NCBI GenBank assembly: GCA_902785275.1 | Contig: CACZYB010000001.1 | Span: 192,001-256,000 of the forward strand | From: an uncultured Pseudomonadota bacterium | GTDB taxonomy: Bacteria > Pseudomonadota > Alphaproteobacteria > Rs-D84 > CACZYB01 | Direction: 5' to 3' | Length of the DNA: 64,000 bases | Part shown: positions 2,233-54,137 of the stretch, piece after piece | How positions within the stretch are numbered: the stretch's first letter is position 1 | Layout of the letters: every line of letters begins with the position of its first letter | Translations under genes and position numbers: made by a program | Notes under the pieces: model-generated | The model's database searches: none | What the model saw: the letters and a program-made list of their open reading frames with translations, nothing else | Told to the model about the DNA's origin: nothing

Positions 2233-2307
2233 TCCGGTGTAGCGCAGTGGTAGCGCAGTTGACTGTTAATCAATTGGTCGTTGGTTCGAATCCATCCACC
2301 GGAGCCA
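2233..2307 (+). tRNA. tRNA-Asn(GTT)
   Basis: TCCGGTG/CACCGGA acceptor stem, anticodon loop CTGTTAA, GGTTCGAATCC T-arm, encoded CCA. Confidence 0.97.
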
Positions 2308-2448
2308 TAAAATCAAACCCCACTTCATGCGGGGTTTTATTTTTTGCTTTGATGAGAGGGATTAAACCATGCAAAGCAGGTTCGGTGAGCATTAGCGAAC
2401 GACGCCGAAGGCGATCCAAAGGACGAGCGAAGCGAGCAATCCATCCAC
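2308..2448 (+). repeat. tRNA-linked ~140-bp module (terminator hairpin + structured GC-rich segment + partial tRNA 3' copy), copy 1
   Basis: TAAAATCAAA-hairpin-TTTGCTTTGAT...TTAAACCATGC...TTCGGTGAG...CGAACG...GAGCAATCC; a diverged copy follows tRNA-Gln; ends in AATCCATCCAC, identical to the tRNA T-arm 3' side. Confidence 0.8.
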
Positions 2449-2507
2449 AAAAAATTTTTCCAACCCTTACACGGACCATCCCAGCGGAAAATCTAAGCAA
2501 AACCTAC

Positions 2508-3269
2508 TTATCTTCCCACTAATCCATTTTTATAAATTTCACAAACTCTATCCAAAGTAGAAACACCCTGTTTAGAACAATCCGGACACATTGGAGGAAA
2601 TCCTCTTAATTTCCTAAATAATCTCTTCTCTGTAATATCACTCATATTTCCATTCATTCTTTGTTGCATAATACAATACGCTACTGTACAATGAGGTCCT
2701 AGTGCTTCTTTAACATTAGATCTATCTCCATTTGTAAAAAATAGAATATGCCCAAATTCGTGTTGAACTACTGTTTGAAAATTAGCTATATCAAATTTAT
2801 TTGTATTCCAAAAGCGATTTGTAGAAATAACACTAAATCCTCCAGGAACTGTTTGGCCAAGACAATAATTACTTGCATTATAAGAATACAAATCATACTT
2901 AGTTAAATAAATACCAAATTGAGGAATTTTTCTGAAATAAGGATCTAACAACAAACAATGACACATCTCATCAACATTTATTTGTTTCGTTGGTTCCCAA
3001 CGTCCCTCTTCAATAGCTTTTTTCTTTGCTTGCTCTATATACCAATCAATACTTTCATAAGGAGTTAAATTAAATTTTCCATTTTCATAAGTACGGTAAT
3101 TTCCTGATTTCCAATTACCTACAATCTTAATAGGAAATCTATCTTTATAATCAGGAAAACAATTCATAACATCTTCTATCGCTTTTTTAGCATAAGAAGC
3201 AAACTCATCCATTCCTTCTTGATTAAAAATTAAAATCTGTCTAATAGCTTCCCGATTATTCTGTTGCAT
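2508..3269 (-). CDS. Putative zinc metalloprotease (archaemetzincin/M54-like)
   Basis: HEFGH followed by HC-x4-CIM and distal CPDC; own promoter TTGACA-17-TATTAT at 3301-3329 (minus strand). Confidence 0.7.
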   Translation of the reverse strand: MQQNNREAIRQILIFNQEGMDEFASYAKKAIEDVMNCFPDYKDRFPIKIVGNWKSGNYRTYENGKFNLTPYESIDWYIEQAKKKAIEEGRWEPTKQINVDEMCHCLLLDPYFRKIPQFGIYLTKYDLYSYNASNYCLGQTVPGGFSVISTNRFWNTNKFDIANFQTVVQHEFGHILFFTNGDRSNVKEALGPHCTVAYCIMQQRMNGNMSDITEKRLFRKLRGFPPMCPDCSKQGVSTLDRVCEIYKNGLVGR

Positions 3270-3336
3270 AATTTTTACCTATTCAAAAACTTCAAATTCT
3301 ATAATAAACAAAATAATACAAAATGTCAATTAGAAA

Positions 3337-3366
3337 AATCCGTCCACCATCCACTCTCCCGAGCCA
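3337..3366 (+). repeat. 30-bp cassette-boundary repeat R1
   Basis: AATCCGTCCACCATCCACTCTCCCGAGCCA. Confidence 0.95.
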
Positions 3367-3476
3367 AGTTAGATAAGCCGTCCGAAAGGGCGGTTTTTTC
3401 ATATAAATTCAAGCATTTAAGCTAGTCCGTGTGACTATTCTTAAAAATATGCAATTCCCAGCATTTACACGGACCA
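3337..3476 (+). repeat. ~140-bp direct repeat, copy A (30-bp repeat + hairpin + GTCCGTGT...ACACGGAC inverted repeat)
   Basis: Nearly identical to 3947-4086. Confidence 0.9.
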
Positions 3477-3613
3477 CCCCGACGAAAAACCTAAGCAAAA
3501 CCTAGCTTTTATTCCAGTATAAATCCACTCACCCAAAATTAAGATTTAAGAATTTATTGAAAAATAAAAACAAAAAATGCTAAAATAAAAAAGGATTCAA
3601 AAGGAGATATAAA

Positions 3614-3946
3614 ATGAAAAAAATATTATTACTATTATTTGTATCAAGTTTATTTAGTTGCACTACCATTACCAAAGATGGAAAAGAATGTTTTAACACT
3701 CAATCATTTGAAGTCCTTCAAGGATTAGAAGGTGGAGCATTAGCTTATGAATGTCCTTGGTATGATAATGATTGTGATTTTAACCCTCTTGTGCATTTAA
3801 CTAGTCCTAAAGATATAGATTATTATGATGAACAAAAAATTACATCCACATCAACAACCTGTTGGATACAAGATGGAGTATATAGATACACAACTAAAAA
3901 CGAAAGAAAAAAAACTGTTCCTAATTTAATTTTAATTGAAAAATAA
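3614..3946 (+). CDS. Small lipoprotein of unknown function
   Basis: MKKILLLLFVSSLFSC lipobox, AGGAG RBS; stop codon abuts repeat R2. Confidence 0.8.
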   Translation: MKKILLLLFVSSLFSCTTITKDGKECFNTQSFEVLQGLEGGALAYECPWYDNDCDFNPLVHLTSPKDIDYYDEQKITSTSTTCWIQDGVYRYTTKNERKKTVPNLILIEK

Positions 3947-3976
3947 AGTCCGTACACCACCCACTCTTCCGAGCCA
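3947..3976 (+). repeat. 30-bp cassette-boundary repeat R2 (start of ~140-bp copy B, to 4086)
   Basis: AGTCCGTACACCACCCACTCTTCCGAGCCA. Confidence 0.95.
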
Positions 3977-4140
3977 AGTTAGATAAGCCGTCCGAAAGGA
4001 CGGTTTTTTCATATAAATTCAAGCAGTTAAGCTAGTCCGTGTGACTATTTTTAAAATTATGCAAATCCCGACATTTACACGGACCAACACAAAAGGAAAA
4101 AAAACTTGCTTTTGTTCAAACTTCGTTCTATATTATTTTT

Positions 4141-4701
4141 ATGATAAAAAAGATTTTAACATTGTTGTTTCTTCTTATATCTTTTCCCGTAATGGTAAGT
4201 GGAGTTCAAACAGACCAATCCGACCATACAAAATCTGAAGAAATATTATCTATTGAAGAATTCAAGTACAATCTTACACATCAGATAAAAGTGCAAATAC
4301 ATTTTTCTATAGATGACGTATTGGGGAATTACTATGAATTTCCTGATAGTAAAAAATTATATTTTACCATATCCAAAGAAAAATCTGGAAAAATAAAGAT
4401 TGATGATTTTTCCCACAAATATACTTTTATTTGCGATATTGATAAAGAAACATATGAAGATATTTACCTGAATTGTGAAAAATTAAATGAAGAATTGGAT
4501 TGGTTTAAATATCCATATATAATTATAAGTAAGATGAAATCAAATCTTATTTCAAATGATAATTATCTTTTTATTATCTATCACCTACTTGGAAAAGAAA
4601 ATTGGGAAGAATTTGATTGTGATGAAAAAGAAAAAAACGAAATATATGATAGAATAAATTGCACAACAATAGAACAATCAGGATATAAAAGGGAGAAATA
4701 A
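4141..4701 (+). CDS. Secreted Cys-containing protein; putative lysozyme immunity protein
   Basis: Signal peptide, 4 Cys, convergent with the lysozyme gene; paralog of 5646..6149. Function is inferred. Confidence 0.6.
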   Translation: MIKKILTLLFLLISFPVMVSGVQTDQSDHTKSEEILSIEEFKYNLTHQIKVQIHFSIDDVLGNYYEFPDSKKLYFTISKEKSGKIKIDDFSHKYTFICDIDKETYEDIYLNCEKLNEELDWFKYPYIIISKMKSNLISNDNYLFIIYHLLGKENWEEFDCDEKEKNEIYDRINCTTIEQSGYKREK

Positions 4702-4717
4702 TCTCCCCCTTCGACTT

Positions 4718-5386
4718 TTATTCTTCTATTGAATGTAACATATTTTTCCGCCATAGATTTCGTTTTATTTGTATATCCGATGAAGAAGATTCGTTGCCTG
4801 CCAAAATCCAATTCTTTTTATTAATAGCCTCAAAAAAATGAGGCCATTTATTTTTATCAGGCTGGAATTTATTTGCCCCCATATTATACTCCATATCCAA
4901 AATAACAAGCTGAGCATTCCTAGGCAAATTATCAAAATCCTTAAACTTTTTTCTAACTGAATTTAAATCACCTTTTAAATGTTCTAATGCAAGAATTTTC
5001 ATTTCTCCATCCATCAATTCAAGAAATCCCCTTTTTGCTTTTCTATCACGCAACATATAAAATTCTGCTTCTTTTTCCTCTGGTGTAGCAAGCCTGTTTT
5101 TATAATATAAAGGTAATTTTTTAAACTTTTCTACATCATTAAACATACTGCCATAACCAATAGTCACATTACCCTTTGTATCTGTATAAGCATTTCTTCT
5201 ACCTCCTTCATGTTCCTCCAATTTATCAAACAAATCCTCTAAAATTTCTTCCACCTCCACAAATTTACATTTACAGTTTGGGTGAAATGGTGGAATATGT
5301 TCTGGTATCTGGTCAAATTTTCCAGCATACTTTTGACATTCTGAACATACACCATCATCACAAATTATCTCAAAAATTTTACTCAT
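4718..5386 (-). CDS. T4-type (GH24) lysozyme with N-terminal MuF-like Cys/His motif
   Basis: E-x8-D-x5-T catalytic triad (HEGGRRNAYTDTKGNVTIGYG), DMEYNMG; N-terminal CSEC...PPFHPNCKC. Confidence 0.85.
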   Translation of the reverse strand: MSKIFEIICDDGVCSECQKYAGKFDQIPEHIPPFHPNCKCKFVEVEEILEDLFDKLEEHEGGRRNAYTDTKGNVTIGYGSMFNDVEKFKKLPLYYKNRLATPEEKEAEFYMLRDRKAKRGFLELMDGEMKILALEHLKGDLNSVRKKFKDFDNLPRNAQLVILDMEYNMGANKFQPDKNKWPHFFEAINKKNWILAGNESSSSDIQIKRNLWRKNMLHSIEE

Positions 5387-5410
5387 TTTCTCTCCTTAAA
5401 TTTAAGTTAA

Positions 5411-5517
5411 TAAAAAAGCCCTTGGTATAAACCAAAGGCAAAAAAAACAGGATAAGCATATATACACTTATCCCATTAGATAAGATCTACTATACCACAA
5501 AATAAAGAACAAGTCAA
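5411..5517 (-). promoter_or_regulatory. Lysozyme promoter and leader containing two tandem terminator-like hairpins
   Basis: TTGACT-17-TATAGT (5489-5517); GGATAAG..CTTATCC+T-run and GCCTTTGGT..ACCAAGGGC+T6 before the AGGAG RBS. Confidence 0.6.
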
Positions 5518-5526
5518 GAACAATTT

Positions 5527-5556
5527 AGTCCGTCCACCATCCACTCTCCCGAGCCA
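5527..5556 (+). repeat. 30-bp cassette-boundary repeat R3
   Basis: AGTCCGTCCACCATCCACTCTCCCGAGCCA followed by TAAAATCAAACCCC, as after tRNA-Asn. Confidence 0.95.
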
Positions 5557-5645
5557 TAAAATCAAACCCCGCATCTGCGGGGCTTTTTTTACATCCAAGC
5601 GGAAAAAAACTTGCTTTTGTTCAAACTTCGTTCTATATTATTTTT

Positions 5646-6149
5646 ATGATAAAAAAGATTTTAACATTGTTGTTTCTTCTTATATCTTTTCCTGTAATGG
5701 CGAAGAATAATATAATTATTGATAATTTTTTGGGGAATTACTATTCTGCACCAACAAGTATTTTACAAAAATTTTCAATTTCAAAAGAAAAAGATAAAAA
5801 GGTTAAAATTGAAATATTCGATATTCCTTTTCATAAAAATAATGAAGTTATTGTTTCTAAGAAAAATATTTTTTTATGTAATACAGATAAAATAACTAAT
5901 ACAAAAATCTATTTAGATTGTGAAGACATACTACCTAAAGAAGACAAAATATCAGAAGAACTTTTTAGATATATCTATGTTATCATAGATACAACAGAAA
6001 AAGGAAGATTCGGTGATTTGAATTATCTTTACTTTTCTTACTATAACTTAGGCAAAAAAGATTATGAAAAGTATGGTTGTGATGAAAAAGAAGAATATGA
6101 TATAAATTGTAGGACTAATTTTAAAGAAGGATATAAAAGGGAGGAATAA
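5646..6149 (+). CDS. Secreted protein, paralog of 4141..4701; putative orphan immunity protein
   Basis: Identical first 18 aa (MIKKILTLLFLLISFPVM); conserved LGK...CDEKE...INC...GYKRE C-terminus; divergent middle. Confidence 0.65.
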   Translation: MIKKILTLLFLLISFPVMAKNNIIIDNFLGNYYSAPTSILQKFSISKEKDKKVKIEIFDIPFHKNNEVIVSKKNIFLCNTDKITNTKIYLDCEDILPKEDKISEELFRYIYVIIDTTEKGRFGDLNYLYFSYYNLGKKDYEKYGCDEKEEYDINCRTNFKEGYKREE

Positions 6150-6161
6150 ACCTCCCCTTAA

Positions 6162-6190
6162 TTATTCTTCAATGGATTGTAACATATTTT
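6162..6190 (-). pseudogene. Lysozyme gene remnant (last ~8 codons only)
   Basis: Minus strand encodes NMLQSIEE* (vs NMLHSIEE* at 4718), fused directly to a copy of the lysozyme RBS/leader (6191-6316, matching ~5392-5517). Confidence 0.85.
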
Positions 6191-6316
6191 TTCTCCTTAA
6201 ATTTAAGTTAATAAAAAAGCCCTTGGTATAAACCAAAGGCAAAAAAAATAGGATAAGCATATATATACTTATCCCATTAGATAAAATCTACTATACCACA
6301 AATTAGAGAACAAGTT

Positions 6317-6346
6317 AATCCGTCCACCACCCACTCTCCCGAGCCA
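6317..6346 (+). repeat. 30-bp cassette-boundary repeat R4
   Basis: AATCCGTCCACCACCCACTCTCCCGAGCCA, followed by a terminator-like hairpin. Confidence 0.95.
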
Positions 6347-6375
6347 TAAAAAATCCCCACACAAAGTGGAGGCTT

Positions 6376-26106: not shown

Positions 26107-26710
26107 TACTAAAATCTTTTCTAACCAAAAATCTATTAAGTGTTATAACAGAAACCCCGCATTTTCTTGCTATTTTTCTTTTTGAAACCTTTTGCACCAT
26201 CATATCAAAAATAAATTTTTCTTTTCCTGTCAGTTTATAAATATTATTCTTACTTCCAACAGGCCGGCCAAGTTTCATCCCTTCTGATTTTCGTTTTGCC
26301 AAAGCTTCCCTTGTCCTTTCAGAAATACGTTCTCTTTCTATCTGAGCAGAAAAGGCAAACACCGTCATAATCATAAGACCTATTGCAGTATTTCCCAGTT
26401 CCAAATTTTCCTTCAAACAAAAAACTCTAACTTCCTTATCCGCAAATATTTTTGCAAGGCTATACATATCAATCATACTTCGTGAAAGTCGGGAAAGTTC
26501 CGAAACAATAACATAATCCCCCTTTTTTAAAACCCTAAGAAGTTTACCTAAATTTCGTTTTTTATAATTTACCGTTCCACTTACACCTTCATCGACATAT
26601 TCTTTTGATATTTTTATGTCACGATATTCACAATATTTTATAATTCCATACCTTTGATTTTCATAATCTTGTTCTTCTGTTGATACCCTTAAATAAGCAT
26701 AAACCGTCAT
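26090..26710 (-). CDS. Small serine recombinase (resolvase/invertase family)
   Basis: YAYLRVST catalytic Ser, ELSRLSRS, ERERISERT, GRP, C-terminal HTH. Confidence 0.95.
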   Translation of the reverse strand: MTVYAYLRVSTEEQDYENQRYGIIKYCEYRDIKISKEYVDEGVSGTVNYKKRNLGKLLRVLKKGDYVIVSELSRLSRSMIDMYSLAKIFADKEVRVFCLKENLELGNTAIGLMIMTVFAFSAQIERERISERTREALAKRKSEGMKLGRPVGSKNNIYKLTGKEKFIFDMMVQKVSKRKIARKCGVSVITLNRFLVRKDFSIKNFL

Positions 26711-29422: not shown

Positions 29423-29496
29423 GCGGGTGTAGCTCAATGGTAGAGTTCCAGCCTTCCAAGCTGGCCGTGAGGGTTCGATTCCCTTCACCCGCTCCA
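29423..29496 (+). tRNA. tRNA-Gly(TCC)
   Basis: GCGGGTG...CTTCCAA...CACCCGCTCCA; promoter TTGAAA-17-TATATT at 29382-29410. Confidence 0.97.
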
Positions 29497-29620
29497 AAGT
29501 TAAATCCTTGATTTTATTGCATTTTTTAGTTCATACTTTATGAAGAAGTATTTTTATACTTATTGCAAAACTCTTGTAAATACAAATACTTAGCTTTTTG
29601 CTTATAAAGGGTTTTGGCGA

Positions 29621-31144
29621 ATGTTTGATAAGTGTGATGCAAAGTGTGATGCATTTGGTTTTAGGAATATCCCTCATTTGTGGTTGAGAAAGAATGTTTT
29701 TTATTGTAGAATAGAGTTGCCAAAGAAGGATAGCAAACGAAGATATGGACGTTATTCGTTGCATACAAATAATTATTATGAGGCTTTAACTAAAATGGAT
29801 GGTATTAAGCAGTTTAATGTAAAGTTTAATAGATTGTGTGAATTGTATTCTCAAATAAGTGTTATTCGTAGAAATGTTGAGCAAATTCCAGGTCATGCAA
29901 TAATGACATTTTATGTTCCGGATGAATTAGTGTTATCTCCAAATAATAAGCCTGAAACATTGATAGAATTTATAGAGTTATTTGCTGAAATAAAACAGGG
30001 TCTTGAAAGATATAATGTTAATAAAGAAGTTGCAAACAATCTTAAAACTATGGAAACTAAACTTAATTTAATTGAAAAAAAGTTAGGTCCTGAGGCTTTT
30101 GCAAAACTTATTCAAACTAATGCTCCACAAGTAAAAGAAACACCTAAACATACATTAAAAGAGATATTGGATATAATGCTTCTTAGAGCAAATAATAAAG
30201 AAGATGAAAAGACAAGAAAAAGGAACTTTTTAAGTAGTGTTTTTGATAGTGTAAATTTGAATTTAGAAAGCGATTATTTGGATTTTTATAAGCCTGATAT
30301 TATTTCTAAGATTTCAGAAAGTATTGTAAATAAGGTAGGTGTAAAGAATGATAATAGACGTCAAAAACTTAGATATATTACGGAATTTGTAAATTGCGCA
30401 TGTAATGTAGAGCCTGATTTTTATAAGAATAACCTTATATTAAATTTGCCTAAAATAACAAAAACAAAGAAGAGTGATAGAAAACCTCATTTGCCTTATT
30501 CTGAGGAACAACTTAAAGAAATATTTGATACAAAGCATAAGTTTTTTGATGAAAACCCGGATGTTTTTTGGATTTGTATGATTGCTTTGTTTACTGGTGC
30601 AAGGTTAAATGCAGCAACAACTTTACAATACGGAGATGTTTTTGAAAAAGATAAGATAAAATGTTTATATTTCCGTTCAAATCATACTATAAAGCATTTG
30701 AAAAATGATGCAAGTGAAAGAATTGTTCCAATACACAAACAGTTATTAGATTTAGGATTTTGGAATTATGTAGAGCGTAGAAAAAAGAAATTAAAAGCAA
30801 AAGATGAAGATTTTATTTTCCCAAAATGTAAAACAAAAAGTGGTGAATACAATGACAGGTATATGTTAAGAACTTTGTTTGTATTTTTGGAAGAACTTGA
30901 TATTAAAGAAAAAGGTTTGGATTTCCATTCATTCCGTAAAAATGCCAGTCTTGCAATGCAATCTGCTGGTTTAGTTGCAAGTTGTATCAATAGAATTATT
31001 GGTTGGGAAGGAACTGGAACTATGGAGCAATCTTATTCCAATTACACATTACAACAGATAAATACAGAATTAAATAAGTTTAGTTATGATTACTTACAGA
31101 CAGAGTTTGATGAGTGGGAAAAAATTATGGAGAAGAAGGATTAG
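29621..31144 (+). CDS. Tyrosine integrase (DUF6538-like N-terminus)
   Basis: ALFTGARLN, K(N)DAS-RIVPIH, FHSFRK, IIGW and SYS catalytic motifs; N-terminal FYCRIELP...SLHT. Confidence 0.93.
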   Translation: MFDKCDAKCDAFGFRNIPHLWLRKNVFYCRIELPKKDSKRRYGRYSLHTNNYYEALTKMDGIKQFNVKFNRLCELYSQISVIRRNVEQIPGHAIMTFYVPDELVLSPNNKPETLIEFIELFAEIKQGLERYNVNKEVANNLKTMETKLNLIEKKLGPEAFAKLIQTNAPQVKETPKHTLKEILDIMLLRANNKEDEKTRKRNFLSSVFDSVNLNLESDYLDFYKPDIISKISESIVNKVGVKNDNRRQKLRYITEFVNCACNVEPDFYKNNLILNLPKITKTKKSDRKPHLPYSEEQLKEIFDTKHKFFDENPDVFWICMIALFTGARLNAATTLQYGDVFEKDKIKCLYFRSNHTIKHLKNDASERIVPIHKQLLDLGFWNYVERRKKKLKAKDEDFIFPKCKTKSGEYNDRYMLRTLFVFLEELDIKEKGLDFHSFRKNASLAMQSAGLVASCINRIIGWEGTGTMEQSYSNYTLQQINTELNKFSYDYLQTEFDEWEKIMEKKD

Positions 31145-31149
31145 TAGTA

Positions 31150-31173
31150 GTTGGTGACAAATTGTCATCAACT
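31150..31173. terminator. Hairpin between the convergent integrase and XRE genes
   Basis: GTTGGTGACA-AAT-TGTCATCAAC. Confidence 0.5.
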
Positions 31174-31180
31174 GAAGAAA

Positions 31181-31519
31181 TTATTTCATTTCAAGTAATG
31201 CTTCAATCTGTTTTAGAATAATTTTTAATGTTTTATCGTCTTGTGTTTCTAGTAAACTTATAATGTGGTTTAATGTTTCATTATTTGAAATATTATTTAT
31301 AGGTGTATCAACCAATAAATCTTGAATCGAAATATTTAATGTTTTTGCAAAAGAATAAAGTGTTGTAATTCTTGGATCGGTAAGGCCTCTTTCAATATTT
31401 GAAACGGTATTTATCATTTTACCAGATAGTTCAGCAAAGTCTTCTTGGCTCATTCCTTTTTGTTTTCTTAAATTAGCAATATGTCTTCCAAGAGTTTGTA
31501 AAAATACTTTATCCATCAT
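31181..31519 (-). CDS. XRE-family HTH transcriptional regulator
   Basis: IANLRKQKGMSQEDFAELSG...VSNIERG..DP. Confidence 0.93.
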   Translation of the reverse strand: MMDKVFLQTLGRHIANLRKQKGMSQEDFAELSGKMINTVSNIERGLTDPRITTLYSFAKTLNISIQDLLVDTPINNISNNETLNHIISLLETQDDKTLKIILKQIEALLEMK

Positions 31520-31546
31520 AAAACCTCACTTTTATGATTTAATTTT

Positions 31547-31627
31547 CACATTAAAATGTGGAAAACACCATAGTGCTATAATGTGTATTTTTTAATTGAC
31601 TTCTTTAATATTACACATTATAATGTG
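31547..31627. promoter_or_regulatory. Divergent promoter with CACAT-N4-ATGTG operators
   Basis: Palindromes at 31547-31560 and 31614-31627; TTGACT-17-TATAAT at 31596-31624. Confidence 0.75.
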
Positions 31628-31663
31628 AATTGCACTTACAATACACATAAAGGAATGTGAAAA

Positions 31664-32113
31664 ATGGATGAAATAATAAAAGAAAAAGTTTTGCAAGAAA
31701 TTGGAATATTTAAACAAAACGAAGATATAAAAGTATCTGGAACTCAAAAATATTTTTTAGTTACTTTTGGTGTGGTTAAAAATGTTAATCCAATAGAATT
31801 TCAAGTTATTGATGATAAAAACAAAAATATAACGATTCAGTATACTAATGCATTTGAAGGATTAGAATATCAACTACGTCAAGATATTGAAGTTATAACA
31901 AGTATTATTGAAGATAAAACTGCGATAAAAAAACAATCAACAAAGTCTATAAATATATTTTTTCTTGTAGATAAAAATGGTAAATTTAATGAACAGATTT
32001 TATCTAAAATTTATAAAATTGGTATAGAACAAGATATTGCAGCTTTAAACTTGTATAAAATACCTTTTAATGTCTTTGTAAAAGAAGTAAAAGATTTAAA
32101 ACCTATAATTTAA
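31664..32113 (+). CDS. Hypothetical protein (element cargo)
   Basis: 149-aa ORF downstream of a consensus promoter. Confidence 0.7.
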   Translation: MDEIIKEKVLQEIGIFKQNEDIKVSGTQKYFLVTFGVVKNVNPIEFQVIDDKNKNITIQYTNAFEGLEYQLRQDIEVITSIIEDKTAIKKQSTKSINIFFLVDKNGKFNEQILSKIYKIGIEQDIAALNLYKIPFNVFVKEVKDLKPII

Positions 32114-32133
32114 TCAAAGTAAAGGAAAAAATT

Positions 32134-33036
32134 ATGAAAAAATTTTTAATATTATTTAGCTTTATCTTAACATTTATTTTTAAATTGGATGTAGCGTATG
32201 CAGAATCTCAAGAAAAATTAGAAGAAAAGATTGCTTATGTTTCAAATTTTCGTAAAAAAATTCATGAACTTAAGCCTGAACTGAATGATGAAGAGTTAGA
32301 TGTTTTTAATACTCTTTCGCTTTCTATGATTTTTCACGACGAAGTTGTAAAAAATTGTAGTGAAGATGGAATTTTATCTGTAAGTGAAGATACTGTGTCA
32401 CCTGGAATTATAAATTATTTACAAGTATTTATGAAAAAAGAAATAAATCCTCAATATTTTATGGAATATTATAATAGATTTATTGATAATAGTGATGAAT
32501 GTATTTTACAAAGAAGAAATAATAAAGGCCCAACATCTATTTGTTGGTTTGATTATAAAAGATTTCTTCCAAAAACATCAAAAATAAAAACGGATAATGA
32601 TTTCTTATATTTTTATAAAGCATATGATTTTTTTAGTGTTTCAAACTTTTGTAACAATACACAAGAATTAACAACAGCAGAAAGAAAAGAATGTAAGGAA
32701 AAATTTAGAAAATTTCTTGTCCAACTATCAAATAAAACAGCCCCACATTGTAGGGATATTATTCCAGGAGAGTACAAGAAACTTTTACAAGAAAGTAAAG
32801 ATTTGTTGAAAACTGTTAATGATACTCGTATAGAAAATGCTTTGGGTCATGAAAAACAGCTTGAAACAATGATGTATCGTGCAATGTATGGAAGTGCATA
32901 TGAAAAGGCAGCAATTGAAGCATTGCAAAATATGGGATTTAGAAATTTCTGTATAGTTGAAGGTTTTGAAGAAGATTTAAAGAAAATACAAGGTAAAAAT
33001 ATTTATAAAAAAATTGAAAGTATTGAATTAAATTAG
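32134..33036 (+). CDS. Secreted Cys-containing hypothetical protein (element cargo)
   Basis: Signal peptide ending AYA; 7 Cys. Confidence 0.75.
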   Translation: MKKFLILFSFILTFIFKLDVAYAESQEKLEEKIAYVSNFRKKIHELKPELNDEELDVFNTLSLSMIFHDEVVKNCSEDGILSVSEDTVSPGIINYLQVFMKKEINPQYFMEYYNRFIDNSDECILQRRNNKGPTSICWFDYKRFLPKTSKIKTDNDFLYFYKAYDFFSVSNFCNNTQELTTAERKECKEKFRKFLVQLSNKTAPHCRDIIPGEYKKLLQESKDLLKTVNDTRIENALGHEKQLETMMYRAMYGSAYEKAAIEALQNMGFRNFCIVEGFEEDLKKIQGKNIYKKIESIELN

Positions 33037-33292
33037 TATTTAAATATAAAATAAAAAACTTCGTATCTCTAATGACACGAGGTTTTTTTATGTGTATTTC
33101 TGGATAGAAAACGTTTTCTTAAAAATTTGTTAATACTTAGAGATAACAAATAATTGAAATCCCCAATTCTAAATAAAGGATGTGAATGGCTGTTTTTAGC
33201 CAATTTTGTTGCATTTTTATGCGTTTTTTTGTGTGCTTTTAAGGGAAAAACTGGGATAATAGCTATGTAAAACAAAAAAGAAAGGCTTAAAA

Positions 33293-33541
33293 ATGTTAAA
33301 GAAATTTGAAAATTGGTTGCTACAAAATAATTATAAACCTAATACTGCAAAGGATTACCAATATAGAATAAAGCGTGTATGTAAAAAAGAAAATATTAGT
33401 TTGGATATGCTTGTAGAAAATATAAATAATTTATTGCCAGAATATGAATTAAGTGGAATGAAAGCTGAGTATGGAAAAACTAGCCATGAAAGTGTTAAAC
33501 AAGCATTGCGTAGATTTAATAAGTTTTTAATGCAAGCATAA
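33293..33541 (+). CDS. Small protein resembling a stand-alone integrase core-binding (SAM-like) domain
   Basis: FENWL...YKPNTAKDY...I...ALRRFNKF pattern. Confidence 0.55.
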   Translation: MLKKFENWLLQNNYKPNTAKDYQYRIKRVCKKENISLDMLVENINNLLPEYELSGMKAEYGKTSHESVKQALRRFNKFLMQA

Positions 33542-33640
33542 TTAAATATTATTTAGATTAAAAATAATGAACCAGGATTGATTGAATTTAGTCCTGGTTT
33601 ATATTTTATAAAGAAAAGATTTTATGAATTTAGAATTGAT

Positions 33641-34231
33641 TTAATTGAATATTTGATAATCGAAGATGATGTTGTCGGTATTAGAGAATTGCATATCGTT
33701 TGATTGAATTAATGTGAATTCTTTGGATAGATATTCGGCGATGCCGTTTGTATTAAATATAGGAGAAATTACGATATTGTCTGGATATTGATTGGATGGT
33801 TTAAAATTTTTATTTGTTTTTAATGAAACGGACATGTGTAATTTATTTTGTAATGAAAAAAGAGTGTTTATAAGGTCGCCGGTTGTAAATTTATTTGATT
33901 TGAGCCCTAAAATAACGTGAGCATGAAAATTTGTATTAGATTGGCCTTGCTCTTGAACAGCAATAAAAATAAAATGTTTTTGATATAATTTGAACCAATG
34001 TGAACCTAATAATTTATTGAATATTTGATTAAACATTGTATGAAGTTTGCTTATAAGTTGAGCTTGGGTTGTAGGGGGATTATAAAACCAACGAATACTA
34101 AAAAATAAACCATTACTGCTTAGTGAGGAGGAGAACCAGCTTGTAATGGTTTGGATGCTTTGCATATTTTTGCAGAATTGTGTTGAATGTTGAGAAAGAG
34201 ATTTTATTTTTTTAAACTTAGATTTATACAT
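33641..34231 (-). CDS. HUH-endonuclease/Rep-like protein (rolling-circle type)
   Basis: E...FHAHVIL (HUH motif) and AEYLSKE (YxxK motif). Confidence 0.65.
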   Translation of the reverse strand: MYKSKFKKIKSLSQHSTQFCKNMQSIQTITSWFSSSLSSNGLFFSIRWFYNPPTTQAQLISKLHTMFNQIFNKLLGSHWFKLYQKHFIFIAVQEQGQSNTNFHAHVILGLKSNKFTTGDLINTLFSLQNKLHMSVSLKTNKNFKPSNQYPDNIVISPIFNTNGIAEYLSKEFTLIQSNDMQFSNTDNIIFDYQIFN

Positions 34232-34952
34232 TTTATTTATTTTTATATTTATTGTTAGTTAGTATTATTTTTTGCATAATAATATTTACTATATAAAAAT
34301 ACTATATAGTTTTTAAATTTACAAATTAAGTATCTACACTACCTTCGTATTTGACCAATAAGGGCCTATACTATATAGAACTGTGAAAATTTTTTATTTT
34401 TGGGGATTTTTAATTTTTTTTATTTGGAATTTTTATATATGATTTATTTTTTTTATTAATATTAGAAAATAAAAAATAATGTTTATATAGTATATACAAT
34501 GAGTTAGAAGATTTTTGTGTCGGGGTTTTTAATGAAATTTAGATAAAATAAGAGGAAAAATATATAAAAAACCCCTTAGAAATGAAGGTTTAATATGTAG
34601 TGATTTTTTGATGTTTTTAAAAAACACTTCCTATAAGACGCGTTTTTTTAGGGGCTAAAATTGGGTTTTTATGAAGTTTTTGAAGAAAATTTTTTGAAAA
34701 AATATTTTAATGAAAAATGTTGAAAATATGGGGGAGGAGAGGGGGAGCCAGGGTCCCATATTTTTATGCTTTTAATGTAAAATTTAAAATTTATTAAAAA
34801 AACTTGTTTGCTTTAAGGGAAAAACGTTTTATAATAAGTGTGATGCAATTAGTGATGCAGTAAGTATGTATGGCTAAAAATAATTGCGTGAAAAGTTAGA
34901 GATTTGGTTGGTTTTGGTGTTGTGTAAAGGCTTAATTTTTAGATGAGTTATA

Positions 34953-34970
34953 CCCTTCACCCGCTCCAAA
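34953..34970 (+). repeat. attR: duplicated tRNA-Gly 3' end
   Basis: 18-bp exact match to 29481-29498. Confidence 0.95.
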
Positions 34971-49583: not shown

Positions 49584-50285
49584 TTACCAAGCCTTACAAA
49601 GATTTTTTACTCTCTGATATTCTTCTTTGCTATCATAGGTATTATTATTTTCAATCAAAGCCTTTTCTAGCTTTGATCTTAAGATTTTTATGTTCCTATT
49701 TTCGAACACCATTTTTTGAATTTCATTCCCAAGTTTTTTTTCTGAAATCTTTTCATCAAAAAACATCGGACCAACATCACTTGCAATACGTCTAAGCTCT
49801 TTTAAGATTAACGAACCATAATATTTAAGTTCTTTTCTGTAAATAGCAACATGTCCCAATTCATGCTCTTTTATCGCATTATATTCACAACTACCCTCTT
49901 CATATTTATCATCTATAAGCACATCAATATTCTTGTATCCTATAGTAAAATTAATATTGGAAAGTATCGCACAAATACCATCATTTATTTTATATCTTCC
50001 AAAACCGAAGTCATATTTAATACCAAAATTCGACTTTGTAAGACCCAAAGTAGCTTTTGGGTTTTTTAAATTTTTTAAATCAGAAATTTCCTCTCTTGGT
50101 ACCGATTTAACAACAACATTACCATACTTTATTTGTGTTGTAACATTAGGTTCCTTATAGAAAGTTTCACAAAGTTCATTTGCATAAACAGGCAATGAAA
50201 AATATAAAAAGCCGGCTATTTTCAAAGTTTTTATGACAAAATTACTTAAAAGAGTCAAGATAAACCTCCACAAATTTATCTCCAT
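49584..50285 (-). CDS. Exported hypothetical protein downstream of virB4
   Basis: Signal-like segment ending VYA; HELGH HExxH motif; 4 Cys; true start uncertain. Confidence 0.65.
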   Translation of the reverse strand: MEINLWRFILTLLSNFVIKTLKIAGFLYFSLPVYANELCETFYKEPNVTTQIKYGNVVVKSVPREEISDLKNLKNPKATLGLTKSNFGIKYDFGFGRYKINDGICAILSNINFTIGYKNIDVLIDDKYEEGSCEYNAIKEHELGHVAIYRKELKYYGSLILKELRRIASDVGPMFFDEKISEKKLGNEIQKMVFENRNIKILRSKLEKALIENNNTYDSKEEYQRVKNLCKAW

Positions 50286-52677
50286 GAAGTTTTCTTAATT
50301 CTTCAACCAAAAGAACTTGCTTTCTACCACTATTAAATATTTGAAGATATGGACCAAGTCCTGATAAATCAACATTCAAGATAACAGATTCATCAATAGA
50401 AGGTTTTCTAAACAATATTGCATATTTCAAATCTTTAAATATCTTTCCTTGAATAAATGCCATTTCCTTTGGTGTAAGGTTCCAACTTTCGTAATCTTCA
50501 ACCCTTGCTTGAACGTTTCTAAAGAATATTTGTGTCTGGCATTGACCACGAATAACTTCACCAATTCCAAGTTTATCCAAAACATTTGGTTGCTGGAATG
50601 CTGCCAAATAAGCTTGTCTTTTCTTTCGACCTTCCTGAAGACCTATCACAAAATTCTTTCTGAATTCTGGATTTTGAAGCATAGGAGCAGTTTCATCGAT
50701 TATAATAAGTGATGGATCACCAGTTCTTCCGGTAATATTTTGTATCCTGTTCATAATATAACTAACTACCGCCGGTGCCAAAGTTCCATCTTCAAAAATA
50801 TATGTAAAATCAAATGCAGTAAATCTATTTGATAAATCCAAATTATCGCTATCACTATTAAAAAGCTCTCCATATTGGTTATCATCAACCCATCTGAATA
50901 ACTCCCTTCTCATTTTTCCAGCAGGTGAAAAACATGATTTATAAAGGTTTTTAAGAGAACGTTTTTCAGGTTCCAAATAATCAAATGCAGTTGTCACCGC
51001 ACGCGCAATTTCATTCTCACTTACCGCATCATTAACCAAAGTTATTTCCTTAAGCCATCTTCTTAAAAAAGCTCTATTTTCAGGATTATCATCAATTCTA
51101 AATGGATTAAGATGAGCAATAGTTCCTGTTTTCTTAATATCCTTATCTTTTGTATCACCATCAAAATTTATGTAAGAACCACCTATTGCATGGGTAAAAA
51201 TCTCCGCACCCCTGTATCTATCAAAGAAGAAGCATTTCAAATCTTTAAAACGTAATGATTGCCCAGCCAAGAAAGAATAAAGAGTTGTTTTACCTTGTCC
51301 AGTAGGACCAATCGCAACAGTATGAGCCACCGCAGTAGGTTCCTCAGAAACATGAAATTCGAATTGATAAGCAGTTCCCTGATATGTTGGAAAAATTGCA
51401 ACCGGTCCCTCACCCCAATCACACTTTGAAAAACCTTCTGGTTGCTTTTCAAAATTAAAACTTGTTGCCACAGCACGTGAAAGCATTTTATACATTCTTG
51501 GGTACTTATCATATGTTGGAAATTGAGAGAACCATGATGCCTGAGCCACCCAACCTTCACGTACAGGTGTAATACCATAAAGACGACAAACCTTTTCTAT
51601 TTCAAATACAACTGCATCAAGTTCTTTTAAGCTATCCGCACTAACAAAAAATGTTTCAGCATAATTTACCAATGTCTGATGATCTTCATCACCCTGTTCT
51701 ATCAAAGCCAAAGCATCATCAAATTGTCTTAAAACATCATATGAAAAAGTTGTTGAACTTGCCATTCTTCGTTGATTAACCAAAACCATCTGTGCTTTAA
51801 GTTTTGATATTGGGAAAAGGTTATGAAGTACAGTAATTTCAAAATTCTTTGATAATATATCGGAAAGCATTTGTTCATCAACACTGCTTGCCTGTTGCTT
51901 TATTCCAACAACAGCCATATATTTTGTTCTGTTACCAGATGTAAATCTTATATATCCCTTATTACTAAAAAAAATTTCATCTGATACCAAAAGTTCAGAA
52001 ATTCTATCATAAATAATATTTTCAGACTTTGGATTTGGTCTACTTATCGGATTAATAACATGCGCAAAAAATGCAAGAGGACTTTCTTTTACACCATCTT
52101 CTTTTAAAATATCTACACCAAAATTTGAAAGAACCGCCTGCAAAGTAGATGTTGCAGTATCCAAATCTTTCATTGCATCCTTTCTATCATTAACAGAAAG
52201 AACAATATAGTGAGTATTCATAAAAATCTCACTTTGAGCTTCATTCCATTTTTCGCTTATATCTTTCAAAAGTTTATTATAGTTATTAACGACCTTATCG
52301 GAATGAACTTTTTCTCTTATGGTAAAAATACGTGTTTCAACACTTATCTCGGAAAGACTATCAATCCATTTCTTTCTATCTTCCAAAAACTCCTGAATAA
52401 CTTCACGCTTTGCAAAGGCAAGAGAAACACCATTAACCTTAAAAACTCTAACTAATGTACCATTCTGACAAAGTATAGTTTTTTTATCGTTTAAAATTCT
52501 TTCAAAAGGAAGATAATTAACAAGTCTTGTATCAAAAGGCTTTGGAAGAAAAATATTTACCTTATCAGACATAAATACAACAATAATAACAGCAATCGCT
52601 ATCAACGAAATAACCAAACCCCAATAATAAGAATTTGATAAACCAGCAACTAAAACATTTTCTAAATTAAAGTTCAT
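50242..52677 (-). CDS. virB4: Type IV secretion ATPase VirB4
   Basis: GPTGQGKT Walker A, FFDRYRGAE, LNPF, IIIDE; follows the VirB3-like gene. Confidence 0.9.
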   Translation of the reverse strand: MNFNLENVLVAGLSNSYYWGLVISLIAIAVIIVVFMSDKVNIFLPKPFDTRLVNYLPFERILNDKKTILCQNGTLVRVFKVNGVSLAFAKREVIQEFLEDRKKWIDSLSEISVETRIFTIREKVHSDKVVNNYNKLLKDISEKWNEAQSEIFMNTHYIVLSVNDRKDAMKDLDTATSTLQAVLSNFGVDILKEDGVKESPLAFFAHVINPISRPNPKSENIIYDRISELLVSDEIFFSNKGYIRFTSGNRTKYMAVVGIKQQASSVDEQMLSDILSKNFEITVLHNLFPISKLKAQMVLVNQRRMASSTTFSYDVLRQFDDALALIEQGDEDHQTLVNYAETFFVSADSLKELDAVVFEIEKVCRLYGITPVREGWVAQASWFSQFPTYDKYPRMYKMLSRAVATSFNFEKQPEGFSKCDWGEGPVAIFPTYQGTAYQFEFHVSEEPTAVAHTVAIGPTGQGKTTLYSFLAGQSLRFKDLKCFFFDRYRGAEIFTHAIGGSYINFDGDTKDKDIKKTGTIAHLNPFRIDDNPENRAFLRRWLKEITLVNDAVSENEIARAVTTAFDYLEPEKRSLKNLYKSCFSPAGKMRRELFRWVDDNQYGELFNSDSDNLDLSNRFTAFDFTYIFEDGTLAPAVVSYIMNRIQNITGRTGDPSLIIIDETAPMLQNPEFRKNFVIGLQEGRKKRQAYLAAFQQPNVLDKLGIGEVIRGQCQTQIFFRNVQARVEDYESWNLTPKEMAFIQGKIFKDLKYAILFRKPSIDESVILNVDLSGLGPYLQIFNSGRKQVLLVEELRKLHGDKFVEVYLDSFK

Positions 52678-52691
52678 TTTGTATTATTCCT

Positions 52692-52985
52692 CTAGGCTGT
52701 AAACTTATTACCCTTTTCTCTAATTAAATTCTTTGTTCTTGCCCTAATATTTTTTCTTGAGGCTATAATATTATCAATATGAGGTTCATTTTTTCCAATA
52801 ATCACTGCAATAAAGTGTAAAAATATGAACATCACAATAGGAATCCACATATAAACACCAAAACCGGTAATTAGAAACAAAATAATAAATGCAAAGGAAA
52901 AAGCAACATTCAAAAGAAAAAGTCCGAATGGTGCGAAAAAAACCTGCATAGGTTGAGCCACAGATTTAAGTAATTCCTCTTTCAA
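52692..52985 (-). CDS. virB3: VirB3-like T4SS membrane protein
   Basis: 97 aa, two TMs, P-M-x-x-F-x-A-P N-terminus and H...EPH motif; directly upstream of virB4. Confidence 0.75.
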   Translation of the reverse strand: MKEELLKSVAQPMQVFFAPFGLFLLNVAFSFAFIILFLITGFGVYMWIPIVMFIFLHFIAVIIGKNEPHIDNIIASRKNIRARTKNLIREKGNKFTA

Positions 52986-53058
52986 AAATTCCCCCTCTTA
53001 TAATATATTAATATTATAAAATCATTATAAAATAAAAGCAATAATAAAACAAGGAATT

Positions 53059-53616
53059 TTAAGAATTCTGTTTATTTCGTCTTTCTATACGATATTTTTC
53101 AAACTTCATTGTAACTTTGTATCCAACAATAGAAAAAACAACAGCCCATGGTAAACAACCAACAACCATAGAAACGCCCCAATCTTTAAGAAGTATCTTA
53201 AAAAGTAATCCCCACTTTTCTACAAAACCTAAATCACCCATAAACGCTTCTTTAAAAATACTTGAAAGCTTTCCATAACCGTTTATATCAGAAATATTTC
53301 CACGTAAAATCTGCCCTGTAACATAGAATATATAATATACAGGTATCATAGTAAATACATTGGTAACCCATGTATAGGCAATTCCAAGTACAAGTGAAAA
53401 ATCAATATGCAAAACTTTCTTAAAGAAAACCCATGTCATAAAAACAATCCACATCTGTATTCCAACCAAAGGAGTCATTGCCCAAAAAAGACCAACTGCA
53501 ACACCCAAAGCTTTAACTTCTGGTGGTAAAGAAAGTCTTGCTACTGGAACAACCAATTTCATTTTCAAAAGTCTTTGTAATCTTTCTTTCAATGTATATT
53601 TCTTATGTTTTACCAT
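53059..53616 (-). CDS. DUF2062-family membrane protein
   Basis: PEVKALGVAVGLFWAMTPLVGIQ...WVTNVFT. Confidence 0.85.
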   Translation of the reverse strand: MVKHKKYTLKERLQRLLKMKLVVPVARLSLPPEVKALGVAVGLFWAMTPLVGIQMWIVFMTWVFFKKVLHIDFSLVLGIAYTWVTNVFTMIPVYYIFYVTGQILRGNISDINGYGKLSSIFKEAFMGDLGFVEKWGLLFKILLKDWGVSMVVGCLPWAVVFSIVGYKVTMKFEKYRIERRNKQNS

Positions 53617-53915
53617 AATATTTTAAATCCTATCTTATTGATTTTACAAAATAATTTTTAAATTTATAAAAATATTAACAAATTAAATTTAAATATAACA
53701 CCAAAAATAAACTTGTCAATTATAATTATAAAAATAAAATTTAAACATATAAATAAACTTAACTATTTGTTTTTACAATAAAAATATCTTATAAAAAGCA
53801 AATCTTTATATTTTATAAGTTATTCTTAATTAATCAAAAAATTATTATAAATATTATTATGAAAATTTTCAAAAAAAATCACCTCGTGTAAGACGAGGTT
53901 TAATTCTTTAACTTA

Positions 53916-54062: not shown

Positions 54063-54137
54063 TGGCTGGGGTGGCTGGATTCGAACCAACGAATGGCGGA
54101 ACCAAAACCCGCTGCCTTACCACTTGGCGACACCCCA
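54063..54137 (-). tRNA. tRNA-Gln(TTG)
   Basis: TGGGGTG...TTTTGGT...CACCCCAGCCA. Confidence 0.96.

Follow-up and report, generated by a model that had tools for sequence, protein, structure and literature searches.

Directly behind a tRNA-Asn (GTT) gene (2233–2307, plus strand; ARAGORN, with an Rfam tRNA score of 71.3 bits), four small gene units stand in tandem at positions 2308–6346 of the window, the 64,000-nt stretch of DNA analysed here. The host is a small-genome gut alphaproteobacterium, represented by a metagenome-assembled genome (MAG) of 1,048,135 bases (1.05 Mb), G000; coordinates are window positions unless marked otherwise. Each unit runs from a terminator through 110–250 bp of conserved non-coding backbone and one or two cargo genes to a repeat of 28–30 nt, R. 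The order of the units, which spans repeats at which contigs of the probable source sample break, is given as assembled in the MAG.

Repeat and backbone of the units

A preliminary description of this sequence had divided the region at four repeats, and our repeat search places the same four on the plus strand: R1 (3337–3366), R2 (3947–3976), R3 (5527–5556) and R4 (6317–6346), each at the right end of the unit of that number. Their start-to-start spacings are 610, 1580 and 790 nt, with 1059 nt from the tRNA end (2307) to the end of R1 (3366). A 28-mer of R matches at 3339, 3949, 5529 and 6319 with 0, 3, 0 and 1 mismatches, respectively; none of 100 shuffled sequences gave any match, and the whole genome contains exactly these four (up to 3 mismatches), all in the window. 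R and tRNA-Asn (2302–2307) end in the same 6-nt core, GAGCCA, which is the joint common to all units. The resemblance to the tRNA end proposed earlier holds at 77% over 52 nt when the tRNA end and its terminator are compared with R3 and its terminator (family D5); R itself is a poor match to the host tRNA end, with 13 of 18 nt in the D5 alignment and identity at the joint over only 6 nt. The four copies form two pairs, R1/R2 with a common stretch of 142 nt at 92% and R3/R4 with a further 133 nt at 95% (repeat families), and across pairs only about 30–60 nt are in common. No internal inverted repeat was found in R by the repeat search, and in 400 sampled genomes of the class no tRNA has a 3′ terminus resembling the second half of R.

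A hairpin follows every R copy (3375–3396, 3985–4006, 5567–5582 and 6355–6371), and TAAAATCAAACCCC stands directly behind both tRNA-Asn and R3, in agreement with the preliminary description. With their T runs, the stems look like ordinary terminators, in a region with 14 terminator-like sites against 2.1 expected. Unit 1 begins with the terminator hairpin T1 (TAAAATCAAACCCC...GGGGTTTT; 2308–2345, plus strand; sequence and terminator prediction), a module that recurs after R3 and, in the relative G003, after the tRNA and after two R copies. It is followed by a GC-rich element of about 105 nt (2346–2452, plus strand; no Rfam match, fold z −0.9), delimited by comparison with relatives and ending in a truncated tRNA-end copy (AATCCATCCAC, 2438–2448). 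In G003, G012 and G002 this element ends in a perfect 19-nt tRNA-end copy, which makes it a cargo-less, att-flanked element of 150–170 nt; the copy in G002 carries that genome's own A/G variant. Next comes a J-tail (ACACGGACCATCCCAGCGGAAAATCTAAGCAAAACCTA; 2469–2506, plus strand; family D8, blastn) in common with the J module of unit 2, and the junctions between truncated tRNA-end copy and J-tail are imprecise, with three different fillers (G000; L045 and G003; X3). Unit 1 is a cargo-less 150-nt element fused to a second, J-type unit.

The backbone of unit 2 (3367–3510, plus strand; family D1) consists of a T2 hairpin (3375–3396) and the J module, with an inverted pair formed by AGTCCGTGTGAC (3424–3435) and ACACGGACC (3467–3475). 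T2 and the J module stand directly behind tRNA-Asn in G011, where the J inverted repeat is lost, and in the metagenome runs X3 and X4. Unit 3 opens with T2 (3985–4006) and a truncated J (3977–4086, plus strand; family D1, 92%), unit 4 with a T1-type terminator hairpin (5557–5590, plus strand; family D5). A T1-like hairpin predicted between R4 and the macB stop codon (6347–6375, plus strand) is probably the original tRNA-Asn terminator.

Cargo genes

The cargo assignments of the preliminary description proved right, although the profile matches are weak. Unit 1 carries a 253-aa HExxH metalloprotease gene (2508–3269, minus strand) whose product is archaemetzincin-like, with a match (E 6.5e-6) far under the curated cut-off; one of its 9 homologues has PF07998. 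The −35 box (end 3329) of its predicted promoter, TTGACA-17-TATTAT (3301–3329, minus strand), lies 7 nt from R1, and promoter and R form a 60-nt block at 82% identity. Unit 2 encodes a 110-aa lipoprotein (3614–3946, plus strand; signal peptide then Cys, read from the sequence), the end of which at 3946 abuts the start of R2 at 3947; copies 81–87% identical lie directly behind tRNA-Asn in G013 and G011. Consensus-like promoters predicted inside the units have 11/12 and 10/12 matches.

Unit 3 holds two convergent genes. One encodes a 186-aa secreted protein (sec186; 4141–4701, plus strand), the putative cognate immunity protein by gene order and co-occurrence. The other encodes a 222-aa muramidase (4718–5386, minus strand; PF00959 lysozyme match, E 8.7e-6) with an N-terminal MuF-like Cys/His motif, and is preceded by a predicted promoter, TTGACT-17-TATAGT, and a two-hairpin leader (5387–5517, minus strand), conserved in G012. 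The −35 box (end 5517) is 9 nt from R3, and the tight packing noted earlier is thus present at R1, R2 and R3. The first 21% of the muramidase is 89% identical to 301-aa proteins that bear GH108 and PG-binding domains instead, and G010 has a 302-aa form; a conserved N-terminal part with alternative toxin domains identifies it as a polymorphic toxin.

Unit 4 encodes a 167-aa secreted paralogue of the 186-aa protein (sec167; 5646–6149, plus strand), followed by a remnant that comprises the 3′ end, leader and promoter of the muramidase gene, with the ORF deleted (6162–6318, minus strand; families D2 and D11). An orphan in G000, sec167 has an intact muramidase partner gene in X3 and X4 (joint 6204 to 4787). 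Neither secreted protein nor the lipoprotein has a family match in profile searches. Units 3 and 4 have near-identical outer ends around a diverged middle, and they are two alleles of one convergent module of muramidase toxin and putative immunity gene, the second without its toxin gene, rather than two separate captures. Deletions within toxin genes are present in G000 and in G003.

Turnover at the joint

Among relatives and independent gut metagenomes, whole units are present, absent or reordered; they vary in number, order and content, the outcome that the comparison proposed in the preliminary description was meant to look for, and the joints lie exactly at the GAGCCA of the tRNA-like repeat. 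Contigs of two other studies join 2301 to 3361, with exactly unit 1 (1059 nt) missing and six letters that fit both sides, and one further run joins 2301 to 3971, with units 1 and 2 missing and six ambiguous letters. Compared with G013 and its lipoprotein unit, the site in G009 is empty, and in L045 and G003 both flanks are 99% identical around wholly different content.

Six left/right combinations occur at this single joint across genomes and metagenome runs: tRNA/T1 (G000, G003, G012 and L045); tRNA/T2 (X3 and X4, into the lipoprotein unit; X2, into the sec186 unit; G011); tRNA-end copy/T2 (G003, G012 and G002); R/T2 (R1, R2 and L045); R/T1 (R3 and two copies in G003); and R/T1-like (R4). 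The backbone composed of T1, GC-rich element and J-tail carries the protease in G000, a GNAT acetyltransferase in G003, two other ORFs in L045, and sec167 with the muramidase in X3, and the toxin/immunity cargo is found in two different backbones. No alternative joint turned up among contigs from the probable source sample, a weak negative because contigs drop rare variants. As related strains have different units at the same exact joint, the interval is a fast-changing insertion hotspot, not a fixed gene cluster.

The R-bearing family is limited to a single clade of genus level: it occurs in 2 of the 41 relatives examined, a count that takes in G000, and in one metagenome contig, and in G000 and G003 R is restricted to the tRNA-Asn locus. 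It is degenerate in G011 and G013, and degenerate copies are also found in G012, where one in reverse complement (GTGGATGGT) lies upstream of the same promoter type, inverted and away from tRNA-Asn; the G003 copy at 1928–1956 has a scrambled first half. The degenerate R of G011 and G013, the lost J inverted repeat of G011 and the scrambled R of G003 are consistent with decay.

Search for recombinases and larger elements

The array contains no recombinase, as previously described: neither PF00589 nor PF00239 has a match in it, the nearest on the contig being at window positions about 26276 and about 30503, and for PF00589 at about 30503 and, outside the window, C1:261877. ORF and profile searches revealed no genes for an integrase, an excisionase or transfer within the units, nor any fragments of integrase or mobilisation genes that would prove an origin from larger elements. 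Near tRNA-Asn in 14 genomes of the genus, several with the locus on contigs shorter than 6 kb, the only gene of integrase type is a Xer-like one in G007, at a distance of 2.2 kb. The recombinase acting in trans that had been postulated found no counterpart either: the MAG yielded neither a candidate tRNA-Asn-specific integrase nor a helper with an attP, and among contigs, which drop rare variants, none showed a circle or attP junction. A full-size relative was absent from 328 genomes of the order (searched with the backbone), 19 genomes of the family (searched with J) and the phage and plasmid collections; the collections searched held no R-bearing phage, plasmid or viral contig, and the 19 family genomes no tRNA-Asn end copies elsewhere besides the 150–170-nt units. 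A dif-like consensus pattern (up to 3 mismatches) matched six times in the window, fewer than expected by chance, and not at all within 2308–6346.

The same window contains a classical island at tRNA-Gly, with a 507-aa integrase ORF, that ends with a 16-nt tRNA-end copy and a hairpin. R and the hairpin behind it have the anatomy of an attR scar, as at this island, and can be read as an attR-type joint. This comes close to the alternative raised by the preliminary description, that the repeats are attR scars of decayed large prophages, but there are no signs of large prophages.

Likeness to known systems

In the outline given by Streptococcus ICESt1/IME work, CIMEs keep their att repeats, lack integration and transfer genes and accumulate in head-to-tail order where a tRNA gene has its 3′ end, and newcomers accrete by using the att site of resident elements (PMC5704250). 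The array units are likewise flanked by direct, tRNA-end-derived att repeats and lack genes for integration, excision and transfer. Unlike CIMEs, they measure 0.6–1.6 kb with one or two genes, or 150 nt with none in one case; they show no traces of lost integrase or transfer genes, and the site harbours no ICE or IME akin to them; and their repeat only partly resembles the host tRNA end.

Tycheposons of Prochlorococcus are outlined as tandem elements split by partial tRNAs, together with remnants (10.1101/2020.12.28.424599), and match the array in a small streamlined genome, tRNA-anchored variable islands, partial tRNA copies, degenerate remnants and strain-variable cargo; on the same outline they span several kb or more and encode an integrase of their own, often with replication genes as well, whereas the array has neither gene type. 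The dif modules of Acinetobacter plasmids, as sketched in two sources (PMC6449649, PMC13141974), are also small recombinase-less modules with short boundary sites and a shuffling enzyme encoded elsewhere, but use XerC/D sites on plasmids, and no dif-like site lies in the array. Integron cassettes, too, are small, comprise one or two genes each, end in a recombination-site-like repeat and gather at one platform with strain-variable content. The array differs from integrons in having no intI by the platform, which is a tRNA 3′ end, a repeat that is not an attC-type imperfect palindrome, and units with their own predicted promoters and terminators, where integron cassettes are mostly promoterless and served by a platform promoter. 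Classical tRNA islands (prophage, ICE or tycheposon-like) differ from the array units in holding their own recombinase beside the att end.

A further parallel is found in polymorphic toxin/immunity loci with orphan immunity genes, those of MuF-type toxins included. Units 3 and 4 resemble them in the conserved toxin N terminus, the exchangeable peptidoglycan-hydrolase C termini, the adjacent secreted partner and the second partner gene left beside a deleted toxin; this likeness concerns the cargo of these two units, not the R-bounded architecture, and the toxin–immunity pairing is putative.

Origin of the array

We consider it probable that the array consists of four tandemly accreted, recombinase-less, CIME-like mini-islands at the tRNA-Asn 3′ end, moved by site-specific recombination at the core. 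This reading builds on observations of how the units are organised, of joints that are exact, of turnover between strains and of a locus that lacks any recombinase. Right behind GAGCCA, each unit opens with T1 or T2 as its intrinsic terminator; either a J module or a GC-rich element and J-tail comes next, then one or two cargo genes, and the unit ends with the GAGCCA of its R. Site-specific recombination at the core would insert, remove or exchange whole units, catalysed most likely by a tyrosine integrase with tRNA-Asn specificity, which would be encoded away from the locus and act in trans. Homologous recombination and deletion would reshape units afterwards, as in the fusion of unit 1 and the deletion of the second toxin gene in units 3/4.

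Alternatively, the units may be dead scars of a few larger integrase-bearing islands that integrated long ago, lost almost all their content by deletion and have since been rearranged by nothing but homologous recombination, tandem duplication and allelic exchange among strains, none being mobile now. The decay of R and J in relatives fits this account, as do the long common modules (142, 133 and 98 nt at 92–99%) able to drive homologous recombination, the toxin-gene deletions in G000 and G003, the lack of a recombinase and the rearranged surroundings of the locus. We nevertheless find it unlikely: the presence/absence joints of unit 1 and of units 1 and 2 share 6 nt, too little for homologous recombination; at least seven units keep both conserved ends and one or two intact genes, which is unexpected under random deletion; and 99%-identical flanks around completely different content point to recent turnover.

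The integron-like accretion of the preliminary description stands in so far as discrete modules turn over at a tRNA joint. Its dedicated capture system, in which sub-2-kb cassettes with an attP-like end (R, GAGCCA, terminator and arm) are routinely excised as circles and captured at tRNA-Asn by a recombinase encoded elsewhere, strikes us as quite unlikely. Four different cargoes in one backbone and one toxin/immunity cargo in two backbones speak for it, all units are small, intact and tightly packed with their own terminator, R1 matches R3 at all 28 nt despite differing surroundings, and a motif of R that J carries as an inverted pair (GTCCGTNNNAC) could mark arm-type sites. However, neither a recombinase nor a circle junction turned up, contigs from the probable source sample showed no variation, the imprecise joints between tRNA-end copy and J-tail indicate deletion rather than site-specific exchange, and duplication with deletion accounts for units 3 and 4; the degenerate R of G011, G013 and G012 and the confinement of the family to one clade also count against it.

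That R is a regulatory or terminator-associated box (an operator or upstream promoter element serving the minus-strand genes, or one portion of a bidirectional terminator) spread together with promoters by local duplication, with a chance likeness to the tRNA end, is very improbable: R does lie 7–9 nt upstream of the −35 boxes of the protease and muramidase promoters, extends with them over the 60-nt block and, in degenerate form, accompanies the same promoter type off tRNA-Asn in G012, but no promoter stands beside R2 or the R copies of L045 and G003 (2797–2825), the presence/absence joints lie exactly at the R end, and R keeps to the tRNA-Asn locus in G000 and G003.

Uncultured gut bacteria with reduced genomes are credited with few gene-exchange routes. 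Here a 4-kb spot behind one tRNA gene turns over completely, in units of one or two genes, between strains with 99%-identical flanks. If the mini-islands are still mobile, they would be among the smallest site-specifically integrating elements known and would illustrate the trade in toxin/immunity genes within such lineages; as scars, they would nevertheless point to an integrase specific for tRNA-Asn, or to a helper element, yet to be assembled. It is a doubtful but conceivable extension that the genus runs a tRNA-anchored, integron-like exchange, in which cassettes of less than 2 kb with their own attP would be served by a trans integrase (perhaps from a transient helper element), form circles and be captured at tRNA-Asn; such a system would allow rapid strain turnover of antibacterial toxin/immunity and surface genes. 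Around the locus itself, the surroundings are much rearranged among relatives, and only in G000 is macB adjacent.

Architecture of the tRNA-Asn array

The tRNA-Asn(GTT) gene (2233–2307) is followed by four units, each closed by a copy of a tRNA-end-like repeat, R (R1–R4). The 28-nt core of R lies at 3339, 3949, 5529 and 6319 with 0, 3, 0 and 1 mismatches, respectively (no matches in 100 shuffles), and a whole-genome scan of the metagenome-assembled genome (MAG) under study (G000; 18 contigs, 1,048,135 bases, estimated completeness 95.7%) found no copies beyond these four. The window covers positions 192001–256000 of contig C1 of this assembly. A terminator-like hairpin stands 3′ of every copy, and the region has 14 such sites in total against 2.1 expected; pattern scan, shuffles and terminator prediction thus bear out the preliminary description of four copies, each with its hairpin. 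Hairpin type T1 (TAAAATCAAACCCC...) follows both tRNA-Asn and R3, the shared hairpin that had been described, and a looser version follows R4, whereas type T2 (AGTTAGATAAGCCGTCC...) follows R1 and R2. The copies fall into two pairs: R1 and R2 have a common stretch of 142 nt at 92% identity that extends downstream, R3 and R4 one of 133 nt at 95% that lies upstream, and across these pairs just ~30–60 nt are common. The host tRNA end matches R at 13 of 18 nt.

The tight packing described for the units holds in detail. The lipoprotein stop codon, at 3946, touches R2 (start, 3947); the minus-strand promoters have their −35 boxes 7 nt from R1 and 9 nt from R3. As had been stated, the array is free of recombinase genes, with no match to PF00589 or PF00239 inside it.

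Unit turnover at a six-nucleotide core

Unit joints fall at GAGCCA, the last bases of tRNA-Asn (2302–2307) and of R. This one core joins six left/right combinations, with the tRNA, a tRNA-end copy or R on the left and T1, T2 or a T1-like hairpin on the right. R is present in 2 of the 41 relatives searched, G000 counted; the second, G003, has two copies, and its contig was the sole match when the genome collection was scanned with a 22-nt R pattern. R also occurs on a single metagenome contig of 1,522 nt (L045); another contig from the metagenome scan, L044, was an unrelated GC-rich sequence matched by chance. The MAG of the closest relative originates from ruminant rectum, and the runs that contain the sequence are animal gut metagenomes.

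As the preliminary description had anticipated, the number, order and content of units behind tRNA-Asn differ between genomes. In tRNA orientation, with joints marked by a double slash, G000 reads tRNA // T1-GCrich-Jtail-protease(−)-R1 // T2-J-lipoprotein-R2 // T2-J′-sec186-muramidase(−)-R3 // T1-sec167-deleted muramidase-R4 // hairpin-macB, where J denotes a module described below and sec186 and sec167 are secreted proteins. G003 reads tRNA // T1-GCrich-copy // T2-J′-sec186-truncated muramidase-R // T1-GCrich-Jtail-GNAT-R // T1-tRNA-Met(−), and L045 reads tRNA // T1-GCrich-Jtail-two other ORFs-R // T2-J-tRNA-Met(−); both flanks of these two loci are 99% identical, and their cargoes have nothing in common. 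A further relative, G011, has tRNA // T2-like-J-lipoprotein-degenerate R // hairpin. The lipoprotein unit of G013 lies between ~36-nt direct repeats (CCA + T1), whereas G009 has the matching empty site.

Independent metagenome runs, compared through their Logan contigs only and with coverage gaps of runs X2–X4 over parts of the stretch left out of the evidence, contain further joints. In X3 and X4, which come from two other studies, contigs join 2301 directly to 3361, skipping exactly unit 1 (1,059 nt); six letters (GAGCCA) fit either side of this joint, and the short side carries 51 nt of true tRNA sequence. In X2 the joint runs from 2301 to 3971 and omits units 1 and 2; some X2 contigs carry the R2 arrangement as well. 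A 2,638-nt X3 contig, tRNA // T2-J-lipoprotein ... T1-GCrich-Jtail-sec167-intact muramidase-R3, differs from G000 in unit order and pairs sec167 with an intact toxin gene, and in X4, R3 // T1 leads into a 5′ region of the sec186 type. Among the contigs of X1, the probable source run, there was no alternative joint; these contigs break at every repeat, so the unit order of G000 is that of the MAG assembly alone.

Whole units are thus present or absent with microhomology limited to the 6-nt core, one backbone carries four different cargoes, and toxin/immunity cargo is found in both backbones. Six combinations at one core, unit presence/absence and the mixing of cargo and backbone together bear the mark of site-specific recombination at the 3′ end of the tRNA gene, in which each unit would bring its own terminator. 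Deletion and decay clearly act too, as the J tail is fused imprecisely to the truncated tRNA-end copy, and R and J have degenerated in G011, G013 and G012. The array behind tRNA-Asn without integrase is real and dynamic, as had been proposed; the integron-like reading attached to it is disfavoured, and we consider it unlikely. The array is best filed as a miniature accretion array resembling cis-mobilizable elements (CIMEs). Its closest described counterparts are CIMEs formed by decay, with accretion at the 3′ ends of tRNA genes (PMC5704250), and Prochlorococcus islands, where tandem elements and remnants have partial tRNAs between them (10.1101/2020.12.28.424599).

On the distal side, macB was rejected as a conserved right flank, since all five relatives checked have a macB 3′ flank unrelated to tRNA-Asn (loci L126–L130); tRNA-Asn adjoins macB in G000 alone (6347–6375). 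The distal neighbours are tRNA-Met and tuf in G003 and L045, and a HAD-like and a ruvB-like gene in G011. A rearrangement breakpoint coincides with the array's distal end.

Search for a recombinase or helper element

Neither G000 nor the neighbourhood of tRNA-Asn in the 14 genus genomes, where several loci sit on short contigs, yielded an integrase for the tRNA-Asn site; in G007 a Xer-like gene lies 2.2 kb from tRNA-Asn. Contig C16 of G000 carries a partial integrase, yet no R-like sequence. Among 19 family genomes there was no larger element with tRNA-Asn ends on either side. Scans of viral contigs matched an R 16-mer at 15 loci and a J 14-mer at 45, all by chance, and a blastn comparison of the island with these 60 loci returned a single irrelevant 40-nt match. 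In the phage and plasmid collections the tRNA gene alone matched, and neither these nor the viral contigs yielded an R-bearing virus or plasmid. Unit boundaries at dif/Xer sites were rejected, there being no dif-like site within the array. The idea that the second half of R derives from a foreign tRNA-Asn end is unsupported, as none of 400 sampled class genomes has a tRNA that ends in this way.

J module and GC-rich element

The J module (~110 nt), 3′ of T2, contains the inverted pair AGTCCGTGTGAC / ACACGGACC, and its tail (ACACGGACCAYCCC...AAGCAAAACCTA) recurs at 2469–2506, behind tRNA-Asn. Directly after the T1 of tRNA-Asn lies a GC-rich element (~105 nt, 2346–2452) with two GAA-loop hairpins 11 nt apart. 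In G000 it terminates in a truncated tRNA-end copy (2438–2448); in G003, G012 and G002 the copy at its end is perfect over 19 nt and precedes a T2-type hairpin, and the copy in G002 has that genome's own A-to-G variant. With this perfect ending, tRNA // T1 + GC-rich // copy forms a cargo-less unit of 150–170 nt with true att-type direct repeats.

The element occurs only in four genus genomes and L045, with copies elsewhere at locus L011 (817–931 and 1994–2104) and, after the tRNA-Gln terminator, at 53915–54027 (−); T1 and the element together follow tRNA-Gln as a diverged copy (54063–54137, −), beside ORFs that by sequence look VirB3/VirB4-like. A known RNA was rejected (best Rfam match no better than E 2.2), the single-sequence fold was not significant (z −0.9) and the four-sequence consensus fold was weak. 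The element may represent arm sites, a small RNA or a decayed tRNA copy. The sole other J/GC-rich motif cluster in the genome was a chance one within a uvrA-like gene.

Cargo modules

The 222-aa muramidase combines a phage-lysozyme domain with an N-terminal Cys/His motif similar to the end part of MuF-type minor head proteins. Over its first 21% it is 89% identical to proteins of 301 aa in which GH108 and peptidoglycan-binding domains take the place of the lysozyme domain, and in G010 such a 302-aa form adjoins a secreted protein of 186 aa. The shared N terminus with alternative hydrolase domains indicates that the 222-aa protein is a polymorphic peptidoglycan-hydrolase toxin. The convergently encoded secreted partners of 186 and 167 aa (six homologues altogether) are putative immunity proteins; complex prediction for muramidase residues 46–222 with residues 22–186 of the 186-aa protein gave a score of zero, which speaks neither for nor against pairing. 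Units 3 and 4 are 99% and 95% identical at their outer ends and diverged in the middle, unit 4 being without the toxin ORF, and the toxin truncation in G003 is an independent event. The protease cargo is archaemetzincin-like; the lipoprotein has no family match.

Upstream of the MuF-motif muramidase genes is a conserved two-hairpin leader plus promoter (5387–5517, −; copy at 6187–6318), also present in G012 (locus L032, tRNA-oriented 4840–4990), with a U run after each hairpin and a compensatory change in hairpin 1 in G012. Rfam gave only sub-threshold matches (nqrA-II, freshwater-2); the leader may be an attenuator or riboregulator.

Other tRNA-linked elements

A classical 5.5-kb island at tRNA-Gly(tcc) (29423–34968) ends in the same way as the tRNA-Asn units, with a 16-nt tRNA-end copy (34953–34968) and then a hairpin, but has an integrase, a 507-aa tyrosine-recombinase ORF (29621–31144). 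Similar sequences also follow tRNA-Thr(tgt) on contig C2 and tRNA-Leu(taa) on contig C4; the integrases at tRNA-Gly and tRNA-Thr of this genome are 507–518 aa long. tRNA-Gln and its GC-rich element are followed directly, on the minus strand, by a possible conjugative or type IV secretion locus (50242–53616) with an 811-aa ORF that contains a GPTGQGKT motif and a 97-aa ORF, which by sequence look VirB4-like and VirB3-like, respectively. About 1 kb from tRNA-Leu(tag) lies a small serine recombinase (26276–26704, −; PF00239, 207-aa frame), and two more copies and one 520-aa serine recombinase are found elsewhere in the genome.
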